Shown piece by piece: positions 3,314-63,546 of a DNA stretch of 64,000 bases (within the stretch, counting starts at the first letter, position 1; the number at the start of each line of letters is the position of its first letter). The DNA lies in the sequence record MT478991.1; one strand, 5' to 3'. Origin of the DNA: Escherichia phage vB_EcoM_011D4. Under the pieces are notes generated by a model. It ran no database searches. It was given only the letters and a program-made list of their open reading frames with translations, and had not been told where the DNA came from. The position numbers and the translations under genes were made by a program.

Positions 3314-6232
3314 ATGGCAGATTTAAGCAGAATCCAATTTAAACGTACTAGCACTAAAGGCCGTCGACCTGATGCTGGTACGATGAATCCGGGGGAATTG
3401 GCAATCAACCTTGCGGATCAATATCTTCTTACTAAAAATGATTCCGGTGCTATTATCAATTTAAGTTGTCCTCCGGTTTATGACCGCGATGTTACAATGG
3501 CAGGTAAGGTTAAAGGTAATAATTATATCTTAAGTAAAACCGCTAACTATTTGGAAGACCAGACAGCGCGAGATCTTAACTACTTTGGTGCTTTCCGTAC
3601 CAATGGTCTTGATGGTCTTCTCGAACTCACGCTAAACGTTCCTCATTCTTCTGGTGTTCAGCATGGTCGAGGATTTACTTTCCAGTATGGACACACTGGA
3701 TCGCGTGTAGAAACTTATGGCTATAATAAAGAAGGTCAAAAAGCATTTAGCTATAAAATGTATCATGAAGGTGATAAACCAACTCCAGGAGAATTGAACG
3801 TTTATAGCAAACAAGAAGTTGACCGTATGTTTGTTAAGAACGTTAAACTTTCTACAGGTTCTGGTGATATCGTTGAAGGCTATTTTAAATTAGCAACTGC
3901 AATGATTCCACAAAACGGTCTTAGCGTATTTTTCCGTATTCATGGTGGTAACGGATATAACGTTACTGCATACGACCAAGTTGATATTGTAGAAATTGTT
4001 ATTCGCAGTGGAAATGGTCGCCCTAAAGGTGTTAACGTTATTGCATATCGCCGAAATACAAACAAATCATTTGATGTTTTGGCTGTTAATACTTCTGGTG
4101 ATAACTATGATATCTATGTGAAATATCAGCGTTACACTGATAACGTTATTGTTGAATTTGGTAAAAGTGTTGGTGTTAATCTGGTAGTTCATGACGTTCC
4201 AGATTTTGTTGCTGAACGTCCTGCTGGCGATAATGTTATTGGCGGTCGTGCTGTAACTCTTTTTAACACAGAAAATAAGCGTGGTGTGTTGAGTTTTGAC
4301 GATAACACACAAAACAGCTATGATATTGTTCATATGAGTAATGATAAAGGTACTGGTCGGAAATATATTCGTAAATTCCGTAGTAACTATAATGAAATGA
4401 TCTGGCACGAGACGGTTCAAGGTAATACATATCGATTGGCAACCGGAACGACTGATGCATCGGAAGTTTTTAGAATTACTAGCCGCACCATGTTTACTGG
4501 TAAAGGTGTATTTGATGCCGGACAAAACGTTCTTAGATTAGAGCGTCCTAGTAACCAATCAAACTATATTGAATGGCAAGATCGCCGAAATGGTGCTGAT
4601 GTTCGTCAAGGTTGGATCGGTTTTGGTGGTGCTGAAACAAATGACTTCCAATGGTATAGCGATCACGCAAAAAACTCATTCATGTTGGATGCTAACGGTC
4701 AATGCTCTATTATTACTGGTGCGACCAAAATTGTATATACCAACGGACAATATTATTCCGCTAACTCTGATGCATATCGTATGATCTATGGCAATTATGG
4801 TGCATTCTGGCGTAATGACGGGACTAAAGTTTATCTTCTGTCTACGGCTGAAAATGACCGTTTTGGTGGCTGGAACGGAAACCGACCATTCATTTACGAT
4901 CTTACTTCCGGTAACGTTCAATTAGGCGGTGATGGTAACGAAGATGCATTAACGTTAGAATGTGCTTCTCGTGCCGCTCGCTTTAGTAATGACGTTTACA
5001 TTAAGAAAGGGCTTTTGACTTTCGACGCTGGGCGCGCTGGATCTCGCGATTATATTCGATTTAATCATTGGGGTGATAGTAATAATGCCCGTGATAACGT
5101 TTTGTACATAGAAGATAGTCAAGGCCGACATTTTAGCACAGAACGTGCGATGGGTACTGGTGCTCTTAAAGCATACTTCTTAGGCGATCTTGAAGTCGGT
5201 GGTAAGTTTACTTGGGGTAAAAATACAGCTACATCTAGCTTTAATATTCGTGCATGGGGTAATGATTCCCGTAAACAAGTATTAGAATGCGCGGATGAAA
5301 GTGGTTGGCATTGGTATACCCAACGTCCAGGCGGTCCGGGAACAAATGAGATTATATTCAATGTTAACGGGAAAGTTCAATCTCAGGGTTTTGAGACTTC
5401 CGGTAATATTAAGATAACTGGACCAGACATTGAGTTTCGTCGCACTGGCAATAAGCACATCTGGTTTAGAGATCCTGACGGCTTAGAATTGGGTTTGATT
5501 TATTGTGACGACAACGGCGTTATTCGTTTCCGTGGTCAAAAACAAACTCAAGATTGGATATTTGGCAATAAGACGATCCAATTAGGAACTAGTGCTACTG
5601 TTAGTGGATCTGGTAACGGTTTGATTCGCGGACAAGTTCAAGGTGGTGCTTGGACACAATGGAGAGATCGTGCTGCTGGCTTATTGGTTGATTGTCAGAA
5701 TACCGAAAACTCTGCACATAACGTGTGGAAAGCGACACATTGGGGCAAATTCCACATTGCAGCTATGGGTATTCACGTTTCAGGTGGAAATATAGCAAAC
5801 GCATTGGCGCGTCTACATGTTAATGATGCAACTTTTGACCATAGTGCGAGCGGTGACTTCCAGGCAAGCCGTAATGGTAGCTTTAACGATGTTTATATTC
5901 GTTCTGATGCTCGCCTTAAAATCAATAAGGAAGAGTATAAGGAGAATGCCACCGATAAAGTTAATCGCTTGACTGTGTACACCTACGATAAGGTTAAGTC
6001 TTTGACGGACCGCACTGTTATCGCTCATGAAGTTGGTATTATTGCTCAGGATCTTGAAAAAGAATTGCCGGAAGCAGTAACAACTTCTAAGATCGGCGAT
6101 CCTGATAAGCCAGAAGAGATCTTAACAATTTCTAACTCTGCTGTCAACGCTCTTTTAATTAAGGCGTTTCAGGAAATGAGCGAAGAACTTAAAGCCGTTA
6201 AAGCTGAACTAGCGGAACTTAAAAAGAATTAA
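3314..6232 (+). CDS. 37: Long tail fibre distal subunit gp37 with C-terminal intramolecular chaperone-like domain
   Basis: N-terminus MADLSRIQFKRTSTKGRRPDAGTMNPGELAINL resembles the gp37 N-terminus; 972 aa; C-terminus has SDARLKINKEEY and a coiled-coil tail typical of self-cleaving tail-fibre chaperone domains. Confidence 0.85.
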   Translation: MADLSRIQFKRTSTKGRRPDAGTMNPGELAINLADQYLLTKNDSGAIINLSCPPVYDRDVTMAGKVKGNNYILSKTANYLEDQTARDLNYFGAFRTNGLDGLLELTLNVPHSSGVQHGRGFTFQYGHTGSRVETYGYNKEGQKAFSYKMYHEGDKPTPGELNVYSKQEVDRMFVKNVKLSTGSGDIVEGYFKLATAMIPQNGLSVFFRIHGGNGYNVTAYDQVDIVEIVIRSGNGRPKGVNVIAYRRNTNKSFDVLAVNTSGDNYDIYVKYQRYTDNVIVEFGKSVGVNLVVHDVPDFVAERPAGDNVIGGRAVTLFNTENKRGVLSFDDNTQNSYDIVHMSNDKGTGRKYIRKFRSNYNEMIWHETVQGNTYRLATGTTDASEVFRITSRTMFTGKGVFDAGQNVLRLERPSNQSNYIEWQDRRNGADVRQGWIGFGGAETNDFQWYSDHAKNSFMLDANGQCSIITGATKIVYTNGQYYSANSDAYRMIYGNYGAFWRNDGTKVYLLSTAENDRFGGWNGNRPFIYDLTSGNVQLGGDGNEDALTLECASRAARFSNDVYIKKGLLTFDAGRAGSRDYIRFNHWGDSNNARDNVLYIEDSQGRHFSTERAMGTGALKAYFLGDLEVGGKFTWGKNTATSSFNIRAWGNDSRKQVLECADESGWHWYTQRPGGPGTNEIIFNVNGKVQSQGFETSGNIKITGPDIEFRRTGNKHIWFRDPDGLELGLIYCDDNGVIRFRGQKQTQDWIFGNKTIQLGTSATVSGSGNGLIRGQVQGGAWTQWRDRAAGLLVDCQNTENSAHNVWKATHWGKFHIAAMGIHVSGGNIANALARLHVNDATFDHSASGDFQASRNGSFNDVYIRSDARLKINKEEYKENATDKVNRLTVYTYDKVKSLTDRTVIAHEVGIIAQDLEKELPEAVTTSKIGDPDKPEEILTISNSAVNALLIKAFQEMSEELKAVKAELAELKKN

Positions 6233-6272
6233 GGAAACTCCCAGGGAAGGGAACTACTAAGGAGAAACGGCT

Positions 6273-6512
6273 ATGGTCTATAATATCGTCATTGGTGCTT
6301 TGTCTAATTTCGGAATGAAATTATTGTCAAAGTTAATTAGTGAAAAGATGCTCACTAAAATTTTCTTCTATTGCGCTCGTCGTCTTGCGGCTTATACCAA
6401 TACGCCAATTGATGATCGTTTTGTGGAAGAACTTTATAAGGAGTTTAATAAAGATCAGTCAGAAGATAGCAACGAGCAAAATAAAAATAGTGATAGTCAA
6501 CTACCTAAATAA
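6273..6512 (+). CDS. Hypothetical protein (79 aa) in the position T4 gp38 would occupy
   Basis: ORF between gp37 and holin t with an acidic Ser/Asn-rich C-terminus; no glycine-rich or gp38-like features. Confidence 0.35.
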   Translation: MVYNIVIGALSNFGMKLLSKLISEKMLTKIFFYCARRLAAYTNTPIDDRFVEELYKEFNKDQSEDSNEQNKNSDSQLPK

Positions 6513-6545
6513 GAGTACACTGTCATAGTTATCTTAGGGCATTAT

Positions 6546-7202
6546 ATGCAAGTTTCTGAAAAAGGGAAAGACTTTGCTATCTCAAATGTCCTGCGCGCTA
6601 TTTTCACAACTAAAAGCACGGAGTTGCTCGTACTTCGTGTTTTTGCTGCCGTCGTGTTGTCCATATTAGCATTTGTCGTTTATAGTAAAAACGAGTTATT
6701 TGCGCTTTATAAAGAGACTCGTTATGAGACTTATGCTCACGTTCTCCAGGTAGAGAAAGACCGCAATTTTGATAATGCAGCACAGGAGCAGTTACAGATA
6801 GTTCATGTGTCGGCTGATGCCGATTTTTCTGCTGTTTTTAGTTTTCGTCCGAAAAACCTAAACTATTTTGTTGATTTGGTGGCATATGAAGGAAAGCTAC
6901 CGCATACAATCGATGAAAAAAATTTAGGCGGATTCCCTATCAATAAAACGAGTGAAGAATATCGTAGACATCTTTTAGGTAAATCCTATTTTACCGATAA
7001 AGATTTCCAGTATATTCCATCAAGAGAAAAGAAATTAGAGAGTATCGATATAGGGGTTATGTATTCTTGTCCTATATTCAATCTCGATAATGTCTATTCT
7101 GGTAGTATCTCCATTGCATGGAAGAATAAACCGGATATTGACATTGAGAATTTAGATACTCTTTGCAATCAATCTGCCAGAATCCTCGGAAGGATTAGAT
7201 AA
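6546..7202 (+). CDS. t: Holin (T4 t-like)
   Basis: 218 aa, same length as T4 holin T; N-terminal TM segment (VVLSILAFVVY); conserved block LQIVHVSADADFSAVFSFRPKNLNYFVDLVAYEGKLP and C-terminal ARILGR. Confidence 0.85.
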   Translation: MQVSEKGKDFAISNVLRAIFTTKSTELLVLRVFAAVVLSILAFVVYSKNELFALYKETRYETYAHVLQVEKDRNFDNAAQEQLQIVHVSADADFSAVFSFRPKNLNYFVDLVAYEGKLPHTIDEKNLGGFPINKTSEEYRRHLLGKSYFTDKDFQYIPSREKKLESIDIGVMYSCPIFNLDNVYSGSISIAWKNKPDIDIENLDTLCNQSARILGRIR

Positions 7203-56994: not shown

Positions 56995-57280
56995 GATTTA
57001 CCCCCAATTCATCAAGATTGTGTCGCAGCATTTCAGAGTATTTTTCTACTTCCTTAATCTTAGTGTGGATCTCCACGATCTCATCTTCACTATCAGAAAG
57101 TTTAATGGCAATAGCGGTACTGCTTTTACCCGCTTTCATAGTCTCTTTCAGTTCAACCAACAGGTCCGCGTGTTTCAGTAGCAGTTCTTCACGTCGAACA
57201 TAAGCGACGGTCAAAGCCTCATCAGCGATTTCTAAAGCATTTTCAGCGACACCAACAACCATTTTACGAGTAGACAGCAT
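56987..57280 (-). CDS. Hypothetical protein (97 aa)
   Basis: Compact - strand ORF; coiled-coil-like. Confidence 0.4.
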   Translation of the reverse strand: MLSTRKMVVGVAENALEIADEALTVAYVRREELLLKHADLLVELKETMKAGKSSTAIAIKLSDSEDEIVEIHTKIKEVEKYSEMLRHNLDELGVNHG

Positions 57281-57294
57281 AAATTCACCTCACA

Positions 57295-57603
57295 TTATTT
57301 CACGTTAACGCCGCCATCAATCCAGCCGACGCTATTTGGTTTAACAGTTTTACCATAGGATGCATACTTAATCAAGCATGGTTTAACATCATTATCAAAT
57401 CTTCCTAAGCGTACTCCCAAATCAGGAATATCCATGTAAGCGGCTTTATATCCCCATGTACAATATTCAGCATCAATCTCAACCGGACGGCCTTTAAAAG
57501 CATACACTACACCGTAACGGTCAACGATAACATAGCGATAGCCAGCCGGAAGATACACAGTTTCGCCGTAAACTTTAACTGGAGTAGCAGAAGAGATAAA
57601 CAT
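57295..57603 (-). CDS. Hypothetical protein (102 aa)
   Basis: First ORF after the promoter at 57638; GTGAGGAAT RBS. Confidence 0.4.
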   Translation of the reverse strand: MFISSATPVKVYGETVYLPAGYRYVIVDRYGVVYAFKGRPVEIDAEYCTWGYKAAYMDIPDLGVRLGRFDNDVKPCLIKYASYGKTVKPNSVGWIDGGVNVK

Positions 57604-57637
57604 AATATATTCCTCACATCGTTCATTTGATGCGGCT

Positions 57638-57666
57638 ATTATAGGATAACCGCATTTTCATGTCAA
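57638..57666 (-). promoter_or_regulatory. Sigma70-like early promoter (TTGACA-N17-TATAAT) with -10 inside an inverted repeat
   Basis: - strand TTGACAtgaaaatgcggttatccTATAATagccgc; GCGGTTA..TAGCCGC flanks the -10. Confidence 0.6.
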
Positions 57667-57672
57667 CAGTTT

Positions 57673-58035
57673 TTAAAAATCTTCTTCCGGTTTATATCGA
57701 CCGTCGTCTTCTTGTTTTGGGCTGAATCCGGTATGTTTGCGCGGCTTCGCTTCCGGTTTACCCGCAATCATCAAACCAAAACATTTCAGCCCCTTATAAC
57801 ACATAACAATATAAACTACTGTCCACGTTATAGGCCAGATGATTGCGGCAATACAAAATGCTCCTGTATCGACCTCTTTCGTGTCCTTATCGAATCTGGC
57901 ATACAAGCAGAATATAAGATACGAGATCATTGCACCCGTAGGCCAGATATAAAGCACATTAACAATATCTTGTGTTGTCACATTGTCCTCCTTACATGTC
58001 TTGCAGTGCGTAGAAGCATTTTTCTTCATAGTCAT
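57673..58035 (-). CDS. Predicted membrane protein (about 120 aa)
   Basis: Two hydrophobic helices (AMISYLIFCLYA, AAIIWPITWTVVYIVMCY); track start is TTG, ATG at 58035; overlaps the upstream gene's 3' end. Confidence 0.4.
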   Translation of the reverse strand: MTMKKNASTHCKTCKEDNVTTQDIVNVLYIWPTGAMISYLIFCLYARFDKDTKEVDTGAFCIAAIIWPITWTVVYIVMCYKGLKCFGLMIAGKPEAKPRKHTGFSPKQEDDGRYKPEEDF

Positions 58036-58270
58036 AGAAAATGTCAAAGTATGCTTTTTCTACATACTCGCCATTGATCCAAGCGGCAGTAACAATCAGG
58101 GTAGTCCAGTTAGATCCGCTCTCAACGGTAAAGGTTTTAATACCCAGCTTCACAGCAAGGTCACGCGCAAACTGGTCGCAACCACGGCAGGAAGTGATAT
58201 TGGAAGTTTTGATTTTGATGCCACCGCGAGTTTTAGAAATTTCTACTTTAGCGAAAGACAGGTTGCTCAT
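57992..58270 (-). CDS. Hypothetical protein (92 aa)
   Basis: ATG at 58270 with CTTAAGGAGAATCAAA leader; the track start lies upstream of the predicted transcription start. Confidence 0.4.
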   Translation of the reverse strand: MSNLSFAKVEISKTRGGIKIKTSNITSCRGCDQFARDLAVKLGIKTFTVESGSNWTTLIVTAAWINGEYVEKAYFDIFYDYEEKCFYALQDM

Positions 58271-58313
58271 TTTGATTCTCCTTAAGAAAAGTGTGTTTCG
58301 TTTTGATGTGTGT

Positions 58314-58342
58314 AGTATAGGGGATACGCGATCCCCTGTCAA
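58314..58342 (-). promoter_or_regulatory. Sigma70-like early promoter (TTGACA-N17-TATACT) with spacer palindrome
   Basis: - strand TTGACAggggatcgcgtatccccTATACT; spacer palindrome GGGGAT-CGCGT-ATCCCC as at 48616. Confidence 0.55.
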
Positions 58343-58357
58343 CAACTTTTTATGATT

Positions 58358-58678
58358 TTAGTGAATTAACTCTACACCAAAATGAGGCACAGAGAACGCC
58401 TTACGAAACACATATTCATCATGTTTAGGGATCGCCCCTAACCTCTCTATTTCGCTCGCCATAACGATAAACTGTTTATCTGGTGCATATGCCTTGTGTG
58501 CTTCAACAACGCACGGAAAACGCGTTTTAGAGAGTTCTGGATAGTTTTCTGAATCCAGAAGGACGATGAATACCCTATTACATTGATTGTAGAATCCTGT
58601 TTTTGATTTCATCAAGTTTTTTTCTATGTACATTTCGTGCAATCTTCCTTTCATGATTTCGTTGGTTCTTGTCTTCAC
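58358..58678 (-). CDS. Hypothetical protein; 5' end uncertain (overlaps upstream ORF by about 100 nt)
   Basis: Track start is GTG; internal ATGs at 58654, 58633 and 58612 lack strong RBS; possible frameshift partner of 58578..58916. Confidence 0.3.
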   Translation of the reverse strand: MKTRTNEIMKGRLHEMYIEKNLMKSKTGFYNQCNRVFIVLLDSENYPELSKTRFPCVVEAHKAYAPDKQFIVMASEIERLGAIPKHDEYVFRKAFSVPHFGVELIH

Positions 58679-58916
58679 AGTTTACCCACTCAACAAGATC
58701 TTTACCTAACTCGAAAGCCCATTCTCGGTCTTGCTTTACGTTTTGTAGGTATGGGCTTTCCGACACTCGACGAAGTGATCTTGTCGTAACAAGAATGATC
58801 CCAGGAATGGTCGGATGTTCTTTTCCATATACAATAGGACGCGAGTCACTATCAATACCTTGTAAGAAGGTGTATCCTGAATCACTTAGAATCATATACT
58901 TTTTCATTTCACACAT
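58578..58916 (-). CDS. Hypothetical protein (112 aa)
   Basis: ATG at 58916 overlaps the upstream stop; basic C-terminal tail overlaps the next ORF in another frame. Confidence 0.4.
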   Translation of the reverse strand: MCEMKKYMILSDSGYTFLQGIDSDSRPIVYGKEHPTIPGIILVTTRSLRRVSESPYLQNVKQDREWAFELGKDLVEWVNCEDKNQRNHERKIARNVHRKKLDEIKNRILQSM

Positions 58917-59173
58917 CACAGATTCCTCAACCAGTTATTAAAGCGAGCAAACCATGATGCTTTTCGTGCTTCTTTTACTTTATGTGCACGAAAACCACTG
59001 AAACACCATTCATAATCATCACCGAAACATGATTCAACAGGAACACCCGCATTTCGTAGTTCTCTGGTCTTTATCATGAATCCTTGACATAAGGGTCGAC
59101 CTTCAACAATGATAGGAAGTTTAACTTTTTCCATGAAATTATACCCAGCACGGTCAATAATTTCAATCTTCAT
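58916..59173 (-). CDS. Hypothetical protein; small paralog family B
   Basis: MKIEIIDRAGYNFMEKVKLPIIVEGR...AGVPVE; paralog of 59192..59389 and 61743..61964. Confidence 0.45.
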   Translation of the reverse strand: MKIEIIDRAGYNFMEKVKLPIIVEGRPLCQGFMIKTRELRNAGVPVESCFGDDYEWCFSGFRAHKVKEARKASWFARFNNWLRNL

Positions 59174-59191
59174 AATATAATCCTCAATTAG

Positions 59192-59389
59192 TTATACCGC
59201 CCAGGCTTCATTTGCACGAAAACACCATTCATACTCAGGAAAATAACCTTTAATTGGCACGCCAGCTTTTTGTAGTTCCTGCGTTTCTACAAGATAATCA
59301 AGCCCATAACGACGACCTTCCACGATGATAGGAAGTTTAACGCCATTCATGAAAGAAAATCCACCATCATCAATAATTTCAATTTTCAT
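59192..59389 (-). CDS. Hypothetical protein; small paralog family B
   Basis: MKIEIIDDGGFSFMNGVKLPIIVEGR...AGVPIK; tandem to 58916..59173. Confidence 0.45.
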   Translation of the reverse strand: MKIEIIDDGGFSFMNGVKLPIIVEGRRYGLDYLVETQELQKAGVPIKGYFPEYEWCFRANEAWAV

Positions 59390-59633
59390 TTACATTGTCT
59401 CCATAGATCTTTCCAGCAATATCAATTTCACCAGCGCGAACATCTAGGATAAGATGCGGTAGGTGTATGCAGTTTTCCCACCCTACGCGCTTCATTTCTT
59501 CTACGGTAACGTAAGCCCACCCGTTCGCTGTAATAAAGTCTACTTCAACCTTGAGAGGAAAGCAAGACTTTTCTATGTCTTCGAATCCGACAATATGTTT
59601 TGTTGTTGAATATGGAATATATCCGGTGATCAT
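59379..59633 (-). CDS. Hypothetical protein (84 aa)
   Basis: Compact - strand ORF. Confidence 0.4.
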   Translation of the reverse strand: MITGYIPYSTTKHIVGFEDIEKSCFPLKVEVDFITANGWAYVTVEEMKRVGWENCIHLPHLILDVRAGEIDIAGKIYGDNVNEN

Positions 59634-60064
59634 TTTGTGATCTCCTTATACTCAACACACCATAAGCGGGTAGCCCATGATAAACGCTCATAACGCTGGC
59701 AGAAATCGGACCATAGATATTGTGTACCGTCTTGCATAGTTGAAATATGCGTTTTCTCTCCTACTTTCACGAAAGAAGTATTCGATTTTGTGATCTCGAC
59801 AGGAGTATATCCGAAAGCTGGTTCCAAGTCAACATCTGAACTAAATGCCAATTTAACAGAATTTGTTTTTCTGACCGCTGTCCGGTTTCCTTCTGGGTAT
59901 AGCACAGCAGGTTTAGCGCCTAAGCGGATAAACTCAGTATTTTTAATGAACAGAATATCATGATAACCGTCATATTCCGACACTTCCATAGTAACAGGAA
60001 AATCGATATGTGTTAAACCTGGTAGATCTCGCATGTCATGAAATGTAGCCATCAACTTTTTCAT
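59630..60064 (-). CDS. Hypothetical protein (144 aa)
   Basis: GAGGAA RBS; C-terminal half (PAFGYTPVEITKSNTSFVKVGEKTHISTM...YLWSDFC) is duplicated in the next gene. Confidence 0.45.
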   Translation of the reverse strand: MKKLMATFHDMRDLPGLTHIDFPVTMEVSEYDGYHDILFIKNTEFIRLGAKPAVLYPEGNRTAVRKTNSVKLAFSSDVDLEPAFGYTPVEITKSNTSFVKVGEKTHISTMQDGTQYLWSDFCQRYERLSWATRLWCVEYKEITK

Positions 60065-60114
60065 TTTGTATTCCTCACTCTTCTGTAATTACTTCATATT
60101 CAATTTTCCATACA

Positions 60115-60294
60115 TCAATCGCCCAGCTTAAAAAGCTCATACGATTTACAGAAAGATGACCAAATATACTGTTTTCCGTGCATCGTTGTTATGTGTGTAC
60201 GCTCGCCAACCTCAACGAAAGACATATTTGACTTTGTGATAACTATAGGAATGCGACCGAAAGCTGGCGGTATTACTGATTCGTTGGTCTTCAT
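60115..60294 (-). CDS. Hypothetical protein (59 aa); partial duplicate of 59630..60064
   Basis: PAFGRIPIVITKSNMSFVEVGERTHITTMHGKQYIWSSFC matches the neighbour's C-terminus; identical 16-nt RBS context ACAGAAGAGTGAGGAA. Confidence 0.35.
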   Translation of the reverse strand: MKTNESVIPPAFGRIPIVITKSNMSFVEVGERTHITTMHGKQYIWSSFCKSYELFKLGD

Positions 60295-60304
60295 TCTATG
60301 TTCC

Positions 60305-60502
60305 TCACTCTTCTGTTTCATTTCTTTTATATGGTACTATAACAGGATTAATACAGCAAGCACCAATTACGTTATGAGCACCACAATTTAAGCATTTATA
60401 ATCATGGAACTTATTAAGGAATCGCCCGAACTCATAACCGACTAGCGCCGCATGTACTTGAGTCTCGATCTCATCCATATCAGCCAATGTTTTAACCCTC
60501 AT
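60305..60502 (-). CDS. Small Cys-rich protein (about 65 aa)
   Basis: ATG at 60502 with TGAGGA RBS; contains CLNCG...GACC, a likely Zn-binding cluster. Confidence 0.4.
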   Translation of the reverse strand: MRVKTLADMDEIETQVHAALVGYEFGRFLNKFHDYKCLNCGAHNVIGACCINPVIVPYKRNETEE

Positions 60503-60512
60503 ATTATAATCC

Positions 60513-60803
60513 TCAAATGGTAGTTTTGCGAAGATGGTCATTACATGCTTTTAATGCATCAGTCGCGGTGTCATAGCGAGTATTATCATAGCACCAGTAA
60601 CCATCTGTCAACTGATAAATTAATCCATCCTTTTTAGCTTCGATGAAAGATAACTCTTTGAAAGTTTCTACTTTCTTTACGGATACTCCACGGTCACGGC
60701 GCTCATAGAGTTTAGCTAAAATGCGTTCAGCCTGTTCCTCTTTATCACCAGACAGATCCCAAATAATGTTGCGGATATGTTTGATTAATTGTTCAGCGGT
60801 CAT
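60513..60803 (-). CDS. Hypothetical protein (96 aa)
   Basis: First ORF after the promoter at 60833; CTAAGGAGAATCAAAG leader. Confidence 0.4.
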   Translation of the reverse strand: MTAEQLIKHIRNIIWDLSGDKEEQAERILAKLYERRDRGVSVKKVETFKELSFIEAKKDGLIYQLTDGYWCYDNTRYDTATDALKACNDHLRKTTI

Positions 60804-60832
60804 CTTTGATTCTCCTTAGTTGTTATGTGTGC

Positions 60833-60860
60833 ATTATAGCACTATGATTTTCATTGTCAA
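60833..60860 (-). promoter_or_regulatory. Sigma70-like early promoter (TTGACA-N16-TATAAT)
   Basis: - strand TTGACAatgaaaatcatagtgcTATAATgcacacat. Confidence 0.6.
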
Positions 60861-60863
60861 CAC

Positions 60864-60899
60864 CCAAAAAACAAAAAAGGCTATCCCGAAGGATAGCCC
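60864..60899 (-). terminator. Rho-independent terminator downstream of the glycine-rich gene
   Basis: - strand GGCTATCC-TTCG-GGATAGCC followed by TTTTTTGTTTTTT, 7 nt after the stop at 60906. Confidence 0.65.
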
Positions 60900-60905
60900 A
60901 TAAAA

Positions 60906-61688
60906 TTACACGCGAGCACCGTAGATCGTGCCTACTTTATCCCAGCGAGGGGCATTGCCAGTAACAGCCTTACCAGCCGCACCGCCATTATATTCCGATC
61001 CCTGTCCACGGATATTACATTTACCACCAGCACCGCCAGCATCACCACCGTTACCGCCATTATATACACCGTTGACAGACCCTTTACCTGGCGCGGAAAT
61101 AGTACCAGCAGTAGCACCCCGTTCCATATTAGCAGACCCACCAGCAGCACCAAATGGACGACCGCCACCACCACCAAAGGTTAATTTCATTTGTGGCATA
61201 GGAGAATAATACCCACCACCGCCACCACCACCACCGCCACCACAAATAGCGCCGTTATTTGTGATGCGTAAGCGTGTGCCTATACCGTTGTTAATTGCAT
61301 TACCACCAGCACCACCAGCGGAGTTATTGCCACCATTACCACCACGCCCCCAAACATGAACACCGGAGTTAATGATCAATGTTACATATTCATTTGTTAA
61401 CGAGCTAGGGAAGTCAAGACAAGGAACGCCAGTAGATTGGGAAACAATATTACCAGTGATAGTAATTACTACCGGAGTAGATCCCTGTGCTTTCATCCAG
61501 TTAATAAGCGTATCTTTATTGTAACTATTACTAGCGCCAATGCTATAATGAATCTCTTTAGAGCGTCCGACCATTGCCGACATATACGCCGGACGACCTA
61601 AGCGAACAGCTTGCATTGCGGCGCTCATCCACCGTTGACCAGTCTCGGACACAGCAGATGATCCTACCCATCCAGAAGATATTGCCAT
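60906..61688 (-). CDS. 38: Glycine-rich protein resembling T2-type gp38 tail-fibre adhesin
   Basis: 260 aa; N-terminus GWVGSSAVSETGQRWMS resembles the gp38 attachment domain as recalled; C-terminal half has repeated glycine-rich motifs (GRGGNGG, a run of ten Gly, FGGGGGRPFG, GGNGGDAGGAGG); TGAGGA RBS. Confidence 0.5.
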   Translation of the reverse strand: MAISSGWVGSSAVSETGQRWMSAAMQAVRLGRPAYMSAMVGRSKEIHYSIGASNSYNKDTLINWMKAQGSTPVVITITGNIVSQSTGVPCLDFPSSLTNEYVTLIINSGVHVWGRGGNGGNNSAGGAGGNAINNGIGTRLRITNNGAICGGGGGGGGGGYYSPMPQMKLTFGGGGGRPFGAAGGSANMERGATAGTISAPGKGSVNGVYNGGNGGDAGGAGGKCNIRGQGSEYNGGAAGKAVTGNAPRWDKVGTIYGARV

Positions 61689-61699
61689 AAAGTTTCCTC

Positions 61700-61724
61700 A
61701 CAAGAAAAGCCCCATTTAAGGGGC
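61700..61724 (-). terminator. Hairpin plus T-run upstream of the glycine-rich gene
   Basis: - strand GCCCC-TTAAAT-GGGGC followed by TTTTCTT. Confidence 0.45.
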
Positions 61725-61742
61725 ATTGATTAATAATATTAC

Positions 61743-61964
61743 TTAGATGACCTCTGCTTCTCCATTCAGGAAGAAAGACCAAGTTTTGTTTGGGTAACGA
61801 AGCGCCCATGATTCAGCAGTTTTAACACCAGCTTCGAACAATTGACGGCTGGTCACTTTAGCCATACCATCTTCGATGGCAACGTTTTCAATAATCATCG
61901 GGTACTTAGCTCCACGCATGAAACCGAAACCAGCGGAAGATTTGATAATTTTAACAGTTGCCAT
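61743..61964 (-). CDS. Hypothetical protein; small paralog family B
   Basis: MATVKIIKSSAGFGFMRGAKYPMIIEN...EAGVK aligns with the 58916/59192 pair; CTAGGAGAATCAAAA leader. Confidence 0.45.
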   Translation of the reverse strand: MATVKIIKSSAGFGFMRGAKYPMIIENVAIEDGMAKVTSRQLFEAGVKTAESWALRYPNKTWSFFLNGEAEVI

Positions 61965-62005
61965 TTTTGATTCTCCTAGAAAGTGTATCTCGTTTCGATG
62001 GGTGT

Positions 62006-62034
62006 ATTATGCAATGACACCGGATCGCTGTCAA
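62006..62034 (-). promoter_or_regulatory. Sigma70-like early promoter (TTGACA-N17-CATAAT)
   Basis: - strand TTGACAgcgatccggtgtcattgCATAATacacccatc; -10/+1 region nearly identical to the promoter at 11416. Confidence 0.55.
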
Positions 62035-62052
62035 CACTTTCTAAGAAAAAAT

Positions 62053-62337
62053 TTAAATTAATCGAATATAGCCCAGAATTTCAGCGCCTTTAGCCAGTCC
62101 TAAAACTTCCCATTCAAGGTCGCCGTAGTCATAATTTGCAACCATCAACTGACCATTTTTCATGCAGCAATCATGAGAGAAAATTTGCCCCGCATAAACT
62201 ACGATAGTAATAAACTTTCCTGATTCTGGCGGTGTGGAAGACAAAGCGACCATATGACCATTCAGCTTAGTCACCAGTGATGGAACAATAAAATTCGGGC
62301 TTATCTGAATACAGTTAAATTCGTTTGTGTCTTTCAT
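62053..62337 (-). CDS. Hypothetical protein (94 aa)
   Basis: Compact - strand ORF. Confidence 0.4.
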   Translation of the reverse strand: MKDTNEFNCIQISPNFIVPSLVTKLNGHMVALSSTPPESGKFITIVVYAGQIFSHDCCMKNGQLMVANYDYGDLEWEVLGLAKGAEILGYIRLI

Positions 62338-62684
62338 GCCAGACCTCGCAAAACACTAATAGCATAATCATGCTGGTTATTCATAATATCAATTGCATTG
62401 TGATAACGAGCTAAACCATCAAGGATAAATTCTTGTTTATCCTGTTTCAGTTTGGTATCACGCGCAGCCATAAGAGCATCAAGAACAGGTCCAAAGTGAT
62501 TATCTAATTCATCTTCGGTTGCAATGTTTCCTATTGCCTCGTCGATCCGTGATTCTAATGCTTGCTTTTCGTTGATCACTTGCTGGGTATATTCCAACAC
62601 ATCAAGAATATCGCGGGTAACGTCGCCATGATAAGGTATTCCCGCGTGAATATGATCAATTAATCGCTGAATATCAATGTTCAA
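62334..62684 (-). CDS. Hypothetical protein (116 aa)
   Basis: Compact - strand ORF; stop overlaps the next start. Confidence 0.4.
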   Translation of the reverse strand: MNIDIQRLIDHIHAGIPYHGDVTRDILDVLEYTQQVINEKQALESRIDEAIGNIATEDELDNHFGPVLDALMAARDTKLKQDKQEFILDGLARYHNAIDIMNNQHDYAISVLRGLA

Positions 62685-63019
62685 TTGTAACCCTCCTCTG
62701 AAAGTACATCCCAGATCGTTGCGTCAAGGTGCATTAAATTCCACATAATAGAGTCATAACTACCGAAGCCAGAAGTAAAAATTACATCACACTGACGATA
62801 GGTCTTATGAAAATCGGTAGCTGTCTCTGCATCAATCGGCATATCGTCACCGGAAAGCACCAGACATTTAAGAATCATAACCCTGTTAGCCGTTGGCGCT
62901 TGCTTAGTCTTTTCAGCATATTTTTCGATGATCCGTTTTGCCTTTTCTTCTTTGATACGTCCAGACCAAATCCGGTTTCTATATTGATTCATAATAATTT
63001 CAATCACATCATTTTGCAT
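62681..63019 (-). CDS. Hypothetical protein (112 aa)
   Basis: Compact - strand ORF. Confidence 0.4.
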   Translation of the reverse strand: MQNDVIEIIMNQYRNRIWSGRIKEEKAKRIIEKYAEKTKQAPTANRVMILKCLVLSGDDMPIDAETATDFHKTYRQCDVIFTSGFGSYDSIMWNLMHLDATIWDVLSEEGYN

Positions 63020-63218
63020 TCTTCACGGTCTCCATAATTGTTTTGTAAGCCAGTTTAAGATGATCACCGAAAAACTTTGCGGTGTTACCCTTCGGATCGC
63101 GGAGCATGGTTTCTACGATCTCATCGGCAGTAACAATTTCTCCTTTCTTTGCTGCATGTTCTACCATATACTTCAAAGTTTCTTCGGAAGCAAGTGCTGC
63201 CGCTACTGGATTAATCAT
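63009..63218 (-). CDS. Hypothetical protein (69 aa)
   Basis: First ORF after the promoter at 63249; CAAAGGAGAATCAAAA leader. Confidence 0.4.
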   Translation of the reverse strand: MINPVAAALASEETLKYMVEHAAKKGEIVTADEIVETMLRDPKGNTAKFFGDHLKLAYKTIMETVKNAK

Positions 63219-63248
63219 TTTTGATTCTCCTTTGTTGTCGATGTGTGC

Positions 63249-63277
63249 ATTATGCTATACACTATTCCGGTTGTCAA
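63249..63277 (-). promoter_or_regulatory. Sigma70-like early promoter (TTGACA-N17-CATAAT)
   Basis: - strand TTGACAaccggaatagtgtatagCATAATgcacacatc. Confidence 0.55.
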
Positions 63278-63280
63278 CAC

Positions 63281-63313
63281 CTAAAAACGAAAAAGCCACC
63301 CTTTAGGATGGCT
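63281..63313 (-). terminator. Rho-independent terminator (possibly bidirectional)
   Basis: - strand AGCCATCC-TAAA-GGGTGGCT followed by TTTTTCGTTTTT; the + strand hairpin is followed by TTTTGATT. Confidence 0.55.
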
Positions 63314-63546
63314 TTTGATTATATTTTATTCACGTCCATTTGTATAGTAGTGTTTGAATCGACCTTTGCTAAACTAGTTAAACATAGTAACCAATTCACC
63401 ATCCCTTTCCAATGATAACCCTTCCTCGTCTTAGACGGGTCTTCCGATTCGGCAGTAATTGAACACGCGAAAGTATGAGGAAGCCAAATAGTTGTGTTAA
63501 TGCTAGTATTCTTTTACTTATGGTATGCATCCCACGGTGACTAACA

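Follow-up and report, generated by a model that had tools for sequence, protein, structure and literature searches.

The DNA analysed here, referred to as the window, is a 64,000-nucleotide stretch of the genome of Escherichia phage vB_EcoM_011D4 (MT478991.1). Its region 57000-63500 is 93-99% identical to the Krischvirus genomes RB49, phi1, JSE and GEC-3S, and the best match, E26, reaches 98.6%. Between dam and rI/tk, this RB49-like T-even phage contains a variable stretch with seven genes of one family of small proteins (Table 1). Six of the genes are consecutive and occupy positions 58358-60064, and the seventh, c3, is located approximately 1.7 kb upstream of this array. The open reading frames of c1, c2 and c3 were confirmed, all of them on the minus strand, and each is preceded by a good Shine-Dalgarno sequence 8-9 nt 5' of its ATG. 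The orthologs of these three genes are listed as hypothetical proteins in all annotated records.

Table 1 Genes and expression signals of the small-barrel family locus; positions are those of the window
Feature	Position	Strand	Description
Fifth copy, RB49ORF071c ortholog	58358-58612	(-)	84 aa, start as annotated in GEC-3S; motif RFPCVVEA...VMASEIERLGA
Fourth copy, RB49ORF072c ortholog	about 58578-58916	(-)	112-113 aa; barrel and charged C-terminal helix
c1, RB49ORF073c ortholog	58916-59173	(-)	85 aa, basic, pI 9.4; barrel residues 1-66 and C-terminal tail
c1 C-terminal amphipathic helix KEARKASWFARFNNWLRNL	58919-58975	(-)	Candidate membrane-targeting tail
c2, RB49ORF074c ortholog	59192-59389	(-)	65 aa, acidic, pI 4.7; bare beta-barrel domain
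Sixth copy, RB49ORF075c ortholog	59379-59633	(-)	84 aa, acidic; most diverged copy
Seventh copy, RB49ORF076c ortholog	59630-60064	(-)	144 aa; family domain N-terminal only
Array promoter	60860-60833	(-)	Perfect sigma-70 consensus TTGACA-16-TATAAT, with TG; heads the unit holding the six-gene array
Stem-loop terminator	60899-60878	(-)	Just before the array promoter
c3 cassette terminator	61724-61709	(-)	Between c3 and gp38
c3, RB49ORF080c ortholog	61743-61964	(-)	73 aa; own promoter-gene-terminator cassette, upstream of gp38
c3 early promoter	62034-62006	(-)	Sigma-70-like TTGACA-17-CATAAT

A preliminary description of the window proposed that c1, c2 and c3 are paralogs, and the alignments bear this out. 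Pairwise BLASTP comparisons of c1 with c2 (E 4e-23, 53% identity across 66 aa), c1 with c3 (E 3e-7, 31% identity) and c2 with c3 (E 2e-6, 32% identity) are all significant. The three proteins also share an end-to-end match to the phrog_7345 HMM, with E-values of 5.1e-38 for c1 (profile positions 1-66 of 66), 1.3e-35 for c2 and 3.1e-34 for c3. The genes c1 and c2 form a tandem pair, as had been described. Their proteins were said to share the first 26 residues almost exactly; the N-terminal likeness is strong, but the wording was slightly generous, since 20 of the 26 residues are identical. The DNA of the two genes is 78% identical over the stretch of the first 26 codons, whereas the identity is 55% across the remainder of the gene. 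The AGVP block reported as common to c1 and c2 is present in both, and its counterpart in c3 is AGVK. Based on the BLASTP pairs, the phrog_7345 matches and the N-terminal identity of c1 and c2, the likeness of the three copies is correct and far beyond chance.

The count of three copies was too low, because profile searches give seven members in the window. A profile made of c1, c2 and c3 already matched the ORF072c ortholog just downstream of c1 with an E-value of 0.0017. The wider-family profile recovers seven window ORFs with E-values from 1.6e-26 to 2.7e-4, and the next ORF is at 1.6. To remove circularity, an independent profile was rebuilt from 32 non-Krischvirus sequences. It selects the same seven ORFs with E-values from 1e-19 to 1.1e-3, including c1 at 1.2e-19 and c3 at 7.5e-11, and the next ORF is at 0.66. 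The E-values from the wider-family and independent profiles are, respectively, 9e-7 and 3.5e-8 for the ORF071c ortholog, 8.5e-6 and 3.5e-6 for the ORF072c ortholog, which matches phrog_7345 weakly (0.008), 1.8e-4 and 5.3e-5 for the ORF076c ortholog, and 2.7e-4 and 1.1e-3 for the ORF075c ortholog, where the independent profile matches at positions 10-46 only. The ORF075c and ORF076c orthologs are the least certain members because they match only the central 33-37 profile positions. No family member was detected with the independent profile among 2121 ORFs from 149 of the 169 kb of T4 (best E 0.57), and T4 therefore offers no experimental data that would apply to the family. The seven window genes belong to one phage family of small-barrel domains, which was amplified in RB49-type phages by tandem duplication, divergence, fusion and loss.

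Within the unit that holds the six-gene array, successive genes have start and stop codons that overlap or lie almost side by side, and the ATG of the ORF072c ortholog overlaps the stop codon of c1. With its longest ORF, which begins with a GTG at 58678, the ORF071c ortholog would share 100 nt with ORF072c. In relatives, the start is annotated at the equivalent of 58612, which gives a 35-nt overlap with ORF072c, and either may be the true start. The C-terminal half of the ORF076c ortholog is duplicated as a stand-alone gene for a 68-aa protein at 60115-60321 (-), with 64% identity over 47 aa (E 3e-19), and both sequences match phrog_10407. The C-terminal domain of ORF076c is thus a second small duplicated domain in the array, present once fused to a barrel and once free. 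The products of the genes at 60513-60803 (-) and 62681-63019 (-) are alike in their N-terminal approximately 46 residues (33% identity, E 5e-4) and may be another paralog pair.

The preliminary description regarded the genes as early, and their location supports this. Sigma-70-like promoters precede both the array and c3, the annotation of GEC-3S places early promoters and terminators at the equivalent positions, and the novel ORFs of RB49 are reported to be grouped with early genes downstream of early promoters (PMC1524935). We infer from these signals that the family genes are expressed early from sigma-70-type promoters. A sigma-70 promoter-like pair, TTGAAA-17-TATAAT, with 11 of 12 consensus positions, is located at 59138-59166 (-), within the first codons of c1. 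It arises from the conserved coding of KIEII...GYNF, and may be an internal promoter or a coincidence.

The gp38 gene at 60906-61688 (-) encodes a T2-type adhesin (Pfam GP38, 1.7e-72) and stands alone in the early dam-tk region, away from any gp37. It is bracketed by the stem-loop terminators at 61709-61724 and 60878-60899, and no obvious late promoter was found before the gene. The adjacency of c3 to gp38 noted previously is real, but the neighbourhood is incidental, since c3 is kept in G37-3, G2248 and MIZ5, in which gp38 is missing from the locus. Its absence from these three loci indicates that gp38 behaves like a movable cassette. With a terminator between the two genes and gp38 missing in three relatives, we found neither conserved linkage nor co-transcription of c3 with gp38.

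The AlphaFold2 model of c2, calculated from an alignment of 18 sequences, is very confident (pLDDT 97, pTM 0.83) and contains a small beta-barrel of six short strands and one short helix. The approximately 65-residue domain of the family is therefore predicted with high confidence to be a small beta-barrel that is SH3-like by topology. Comparison of the model with solved structures gave weak matches, with Z-scores of at most 4.2 and a best Foldseek E-value of 0.44 against the PDB, and the family profile matched no PDB sequence even at E<=10. Foldseek searches of predicted viral structures identified eight matches at E<=1e-3, two of which are Krischvirus orthologs, and more phage proteins at E-values up to approximately 0.1; all the named matches are uncharacterised phage proteins (for example, from Merlin, CS01, VpV262, ZCKP1 and SRT8). 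No family member matched a model in Pfam, including those of the SH3 clan, or in NCBIfam, and seven proteins compared with PADLOC-DB had no match at E<=1. The family is without demonstrable homology to any characterised family, and the searches identified neither a homolog of known function nor a conserved functional neighbour pointing to a particular target. The proteins have no signal peptide, transmembrane segment or catalytic motif and are probably soluble.

A HMMER scan of 1.84 billion representative proteins gave 30 matches at E<=1e-3. These relatives include proteins of approximately 70 residues with the signature MKVKLLNDGGY..M..VKFPVVVEG...EL.R.GA...Y.W.F...EVI, and five are two-domain fusions of the family. 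Three large SpaA/Cna_B surface proteins retrieved by the representative search (P0037, P0038 and P0049) were rejected as relatives because they are repeat artefacts. A word-indexed protein search identified 29 clusters of close orthologs, apparently all of Krischvirus type and several on contigs of 160-175 kb, and a locus search with a narrow alignment gave two Krischvirus contigs only. Distant members found by tblastn and locus look-ups belong to phages of Proteus, Morganella, Pantoea, Iodobacter, Aeromonas and Escherichia. At the examined loci they are positioned among small early hypothetical genes or beside replication genes, and one is part of a small opposite-strand cassette inside a tail module. 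When 185,579 bacterial genomes, each representing a species, were probed with a narrow motif, 94 pattern matches were obtained, of which 93 were due to chance and one was a true member, in Moellerella wisconsensis, presumably within a prophage. Judged by these searches, the family is essentially confined to phages, in which it is sparse.

The copy number of the family differs between close relatives. A survey of eight Krischvirus loci showed that c3 is constant (retained in 8/8) and c2 is variable, being present in RB49, GEC-3S and MIZ5 and absent from five: JSE, ECD7, the IMG/VR contig L006, G37-3 and G2248. In the phages lacking c2, c1 directly abuts ORF075c, and in G37-3 the N-terminal domain of ORF076c is deleted as well. 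A larger array belongs to a metagenomic T4-like phage (contigs L014 and L015, 168-169 kb), in which eight genes, two of them with two domains, encode ten family domains. The array is located at positions 3900-7000 in the same tk-dam region, between rI.-1 together with a gene for a 708-aa Ig-like protein and dam, and the expansion is much larger than that in the window. Two metagenomic chimeras were also found. In P0027, residues 1-45 of c3 are fused to the C-terminus of ORF075c, and in P0029 the N-terminus of the 69-aa protein encoded at 63009-63218 is fused to the last approximately 36 residues of c2. These chimeras indicate that deletions have joined distant small genes in some relatives. 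Local expansion, fusion and contraction characterise the family.

Purifying selection acts on the copies. When each window gene was set against its orthologs, the pooled pN/pS values, which are rough since the pairs are few, non-independent and of low divergence, were 0.00 for c2 (two comparisons), 0.05 for c3, 0.07 for ORF075c, 0.15 for ORF076c, 0.29 for ORF071c, 0.40 for ORF072c and 0.50 for c1. Values in this range show that the copies are truly protein-coding, and c1 and ORF072c are the fastest-evolving among them. The variation among eleven c1-type alleles is concentrated in residues 7-17, 26-36, 44-53 and 59-68, which form loops. Almost no variation is seen in the core strands KLPIIVEG and YEWCF or in the C-terminal tail.

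After the core strands, the C-terminal tail is the most conserved part of c1. In c1 and in its alleles, the tail terminates in KEARKASWFARFNNWLRN/KL, and similar tails are present in the more distant P0032 and P0040. The last 14 residues have a hydrophobic moment of 0.55, which corresponds to the 97.6th percentile of 14-mers in neighbouring proteins. Membrane-targeting sequences of the FtsA/MinD type are amphipathic helices that form the very end of the protein and contain aromatic and basic residues, and the c1 tail has these properties. The C-terminal amphipathic helix of FtsA is a membrane-targeting sequence, and in the genome of E. coli K-12 FtsA ends with ...GSWIKRLNSWLRKEF. An ungapped comparison of the c1 tail SWFARFNNWLRNL with the FtsA tail SWIKRLNSWLRKE gave 7/13 identical residues, and 8/13 in the alleles of JSE, ECD7 and MIZ5. 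Both tails form the extreme C-terminus of their proteins, and their hydrophobic moments are similar (0.55 vs 0.62). Unlike that of FtsA, the c1 tail is attached to an unrelated domain. The match is short, and the likeness was noticed after the fact. A match of at least 7/13 is expected once per approximately 50,000-110,000 random 13-mers, or about once per window-sized search, and therefore the likeness to FtsA is a lead rather than proof. Judging by the sequence of its tail, c1 is probably held at the membrane. The C-terminus of the 144-aa ORF076c ortholog, ...SWATRLWCVEYKEITK, encoded at 59633-59680 (-), shares 6/13 residues with the FtsA sequence; this match is weaker than that of c1 and may be due to chance.

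Based on the predicted fold, the distribution of the family and the signals at the locus, a role for the proteins can be proposed. The preliminary description regarded small duplicated early proteins as candidates for host interaction or anti-defence. Such a reading is the most plausible one, given the restriction of the family to phages, its tandem expansion, the variation in its loops, and its presence or absence between close relatives. We tentatively propose that the family members are stand-alone early modules that bind host components in host takeover or counter-defence, with c1 held at the membrane and neighbouring copies perhaps working in pairs. The proteins would be produced early in infection from the sigma-70-type promoters and would be soluble, cytoplasmic and non-enzymatic. 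The conserved barrel core may serve as a scaffold for variable loops that would direct each paralog to a target of its own. Host proteins are the most likely targets, and their binding would contribute to host takeover or counter-defence. In the c1 subfamily, the amphipathic helix would keep the barrel attached to the cytoplasmic membrane on its inner side. Adjacent copies, such as the acidic c2 and the basic c1, may function as pairs, as suggested by the natural two-domain fusions. A search of the literature on Krischvirus and anti-defence found nothing on this family. A more ambitious version of the proposal is quite unlikely. It holds that the proteins are a new class of factors for counter-defence or host takeover that share one minimal barrel scaffold, that in T4-like phages their number rises and falls like an accordion, following variable host targets, that c1 reaches the inner membrane by means of a tail copying that of FtsA, and that acidic and basic neighbours are paired.

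The main rival to host-protein binding is the binding of nucleic acids. SH3-like barrels often bind nucleic acids, and the small barrels of the family might bind RNA or DNA, in the manner of Sm/Hfq, KOW, Tudor or integrase C-terminal domains, and so, early in infection, adjust the expression of phage or host genes or the stability of RNA. Three of the copies are basic, with pI values above 9. However, c2 and ORF075c are acidic (pI 4.7-4.8), much of the charge of c1 and ORF072c is carried by C-terminal tails outside the barrel, and the family consensus has no evident conserved basic patch. The matches to solved structures are also weak (Z-scores of at most 4.2 and Foldseek E-values of at least 0.44). 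We regard this function as rather unlikely.

The modules proposed to bind separate host targets could instead be subunits of a single hetero-oligomeric factor, in which case c2, c1 and the other neighbours would form one machine and the array would not represent many specificities. The opposite charges of c2 and c1 are consistent with such an assembly, as are the five relatives fused into two-domain proteins and two more such fusions in L014. Moreover, c2 and c1 are in one frame with just a TAA stop codon and 18 nt between them, and translational coupling is suggested by the way in which start and stop codons overlap along the array. However, c1 remains in the five of eight related phages from which c2 is absent. 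The AlphaFold2 model of a natural fusion contains two barrels (pLDDT 80, pTM 0.52) with no confident interface, and the pairing of neighbours therefore lacks structural support. We consider the single-machine explanation fairly improbable. At this junction (59174-59194, stop codon included) the 18 nt contain the ribosome-binding site of c1, and a tblastn alignment of a two-domain relative extends straight across both genes. Readthrough from c2 into c1 was considered and set aside, the shared frame being the sole pointer to it.

It is very unlikely, given the selection data, that the copies are functionless leftovers of duplication, that is, neutral filler ORFs in a recombination-prone region. 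The differences in copy number between close relatives and the existence of chimeric and truncated forms (P0027, P0029 and G37-3) are compatible with neutral decay. However, the pN/pS values of most copies, including c3, ORF075c and ORF076c, are well below 1, the ribosome-binding sites are intact, and unrelated phage groups, among them phages of Proteus, Pantoea, Iodobacter and Aeromonas, have kept the core of the fold. A role as tail-fibre or morphogenesis helpers tied to the gp38 adhesin, suggested by the position of c3 immediately upstream of gp38, is highly improbable and largely refuted by the survey, and a functional link of c3 to gp38 was rejected on synteny, because an early promoter precedes c3 itself and a terminator separates it from gp38, c3 is kept at the three loci without gp38, and the relatives in small phages are positioned among early or replication genes.

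The variable regions of T4-like phages consist mostly of genes without a known function, and they are the source of many known counter-defence and host-takeover genes. The analysis unites a set of hypothetical proteins of RB49-type phages into one domain family with a predicted fold, a sequence signature, fusions, a c2 polymorphism and a candidate membrane anchor. The family provides a compact and testable set of candidates for anti-defence and host-takeover screening. It is also a clear case of the growth of a multigene family by tandem duplication within a phage genome, which is not a surprising kind of object. What appears to be new is the definition of the family together with its fold, its seven-copy array and its candidate membrane tail, but the kind of finding is a familiar one. 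Literature searches with the RB49 ORF names and the PHROG identifier found no paper in the library searched.

The family corresponds in part to known sequence clusters. The c1, c2 and c3 proteins match phrog_7345 over its full length, and distant relatives belong to the sister clusters phrog_13367, phrog_15322, phrog_20482, phrog_5009 and others. All of these are clusters of "unknown function", to which the present analysis adds the fold and the paralog arrays. The likeness of the family to SH3, Tudor/Agenet, KOW and retroviral integrase C-terminal domains is one of topology only. The setting of the genes resembles that of the promoter-stem-loop (PeSL) cassettes, which are reported to mediate gene shuffling in RB49 and phi1 (PMC2839356). 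Like the hyperplastic regions and PeSL cassettes of T4-type phages (PMC2839356; PMC4122927), the family is located in a variable region, that between dam and tk. Both c3 and gp38 are bracketed by pairs of terminators and early promoters in a PeSL-like manner, and genes come and go between near-identical phages. The subject of these papers is gene shuffling rather than the present family (PMC2839356; PMC4122927), and the PeSL paper does not mention the RB49 ORFs of the family (Arbiol et al. 2010, PMC2839356). Unlike PeSL cassettes, the six-gene array grew by local tandem duplication within one transcription unit and not by cassette exchange. In this respect, the array can be compared with the "genomic accordions" of large DNA viruses. 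Poxviruses and African swine fever virus (ASFV) carry multigene families of this kind, including host-range families. The analogy is behavioural, with no common ancestry or function implied: in both, small non-essential genes multiply in tandem, diverge and are lost in a lineage-specific way.
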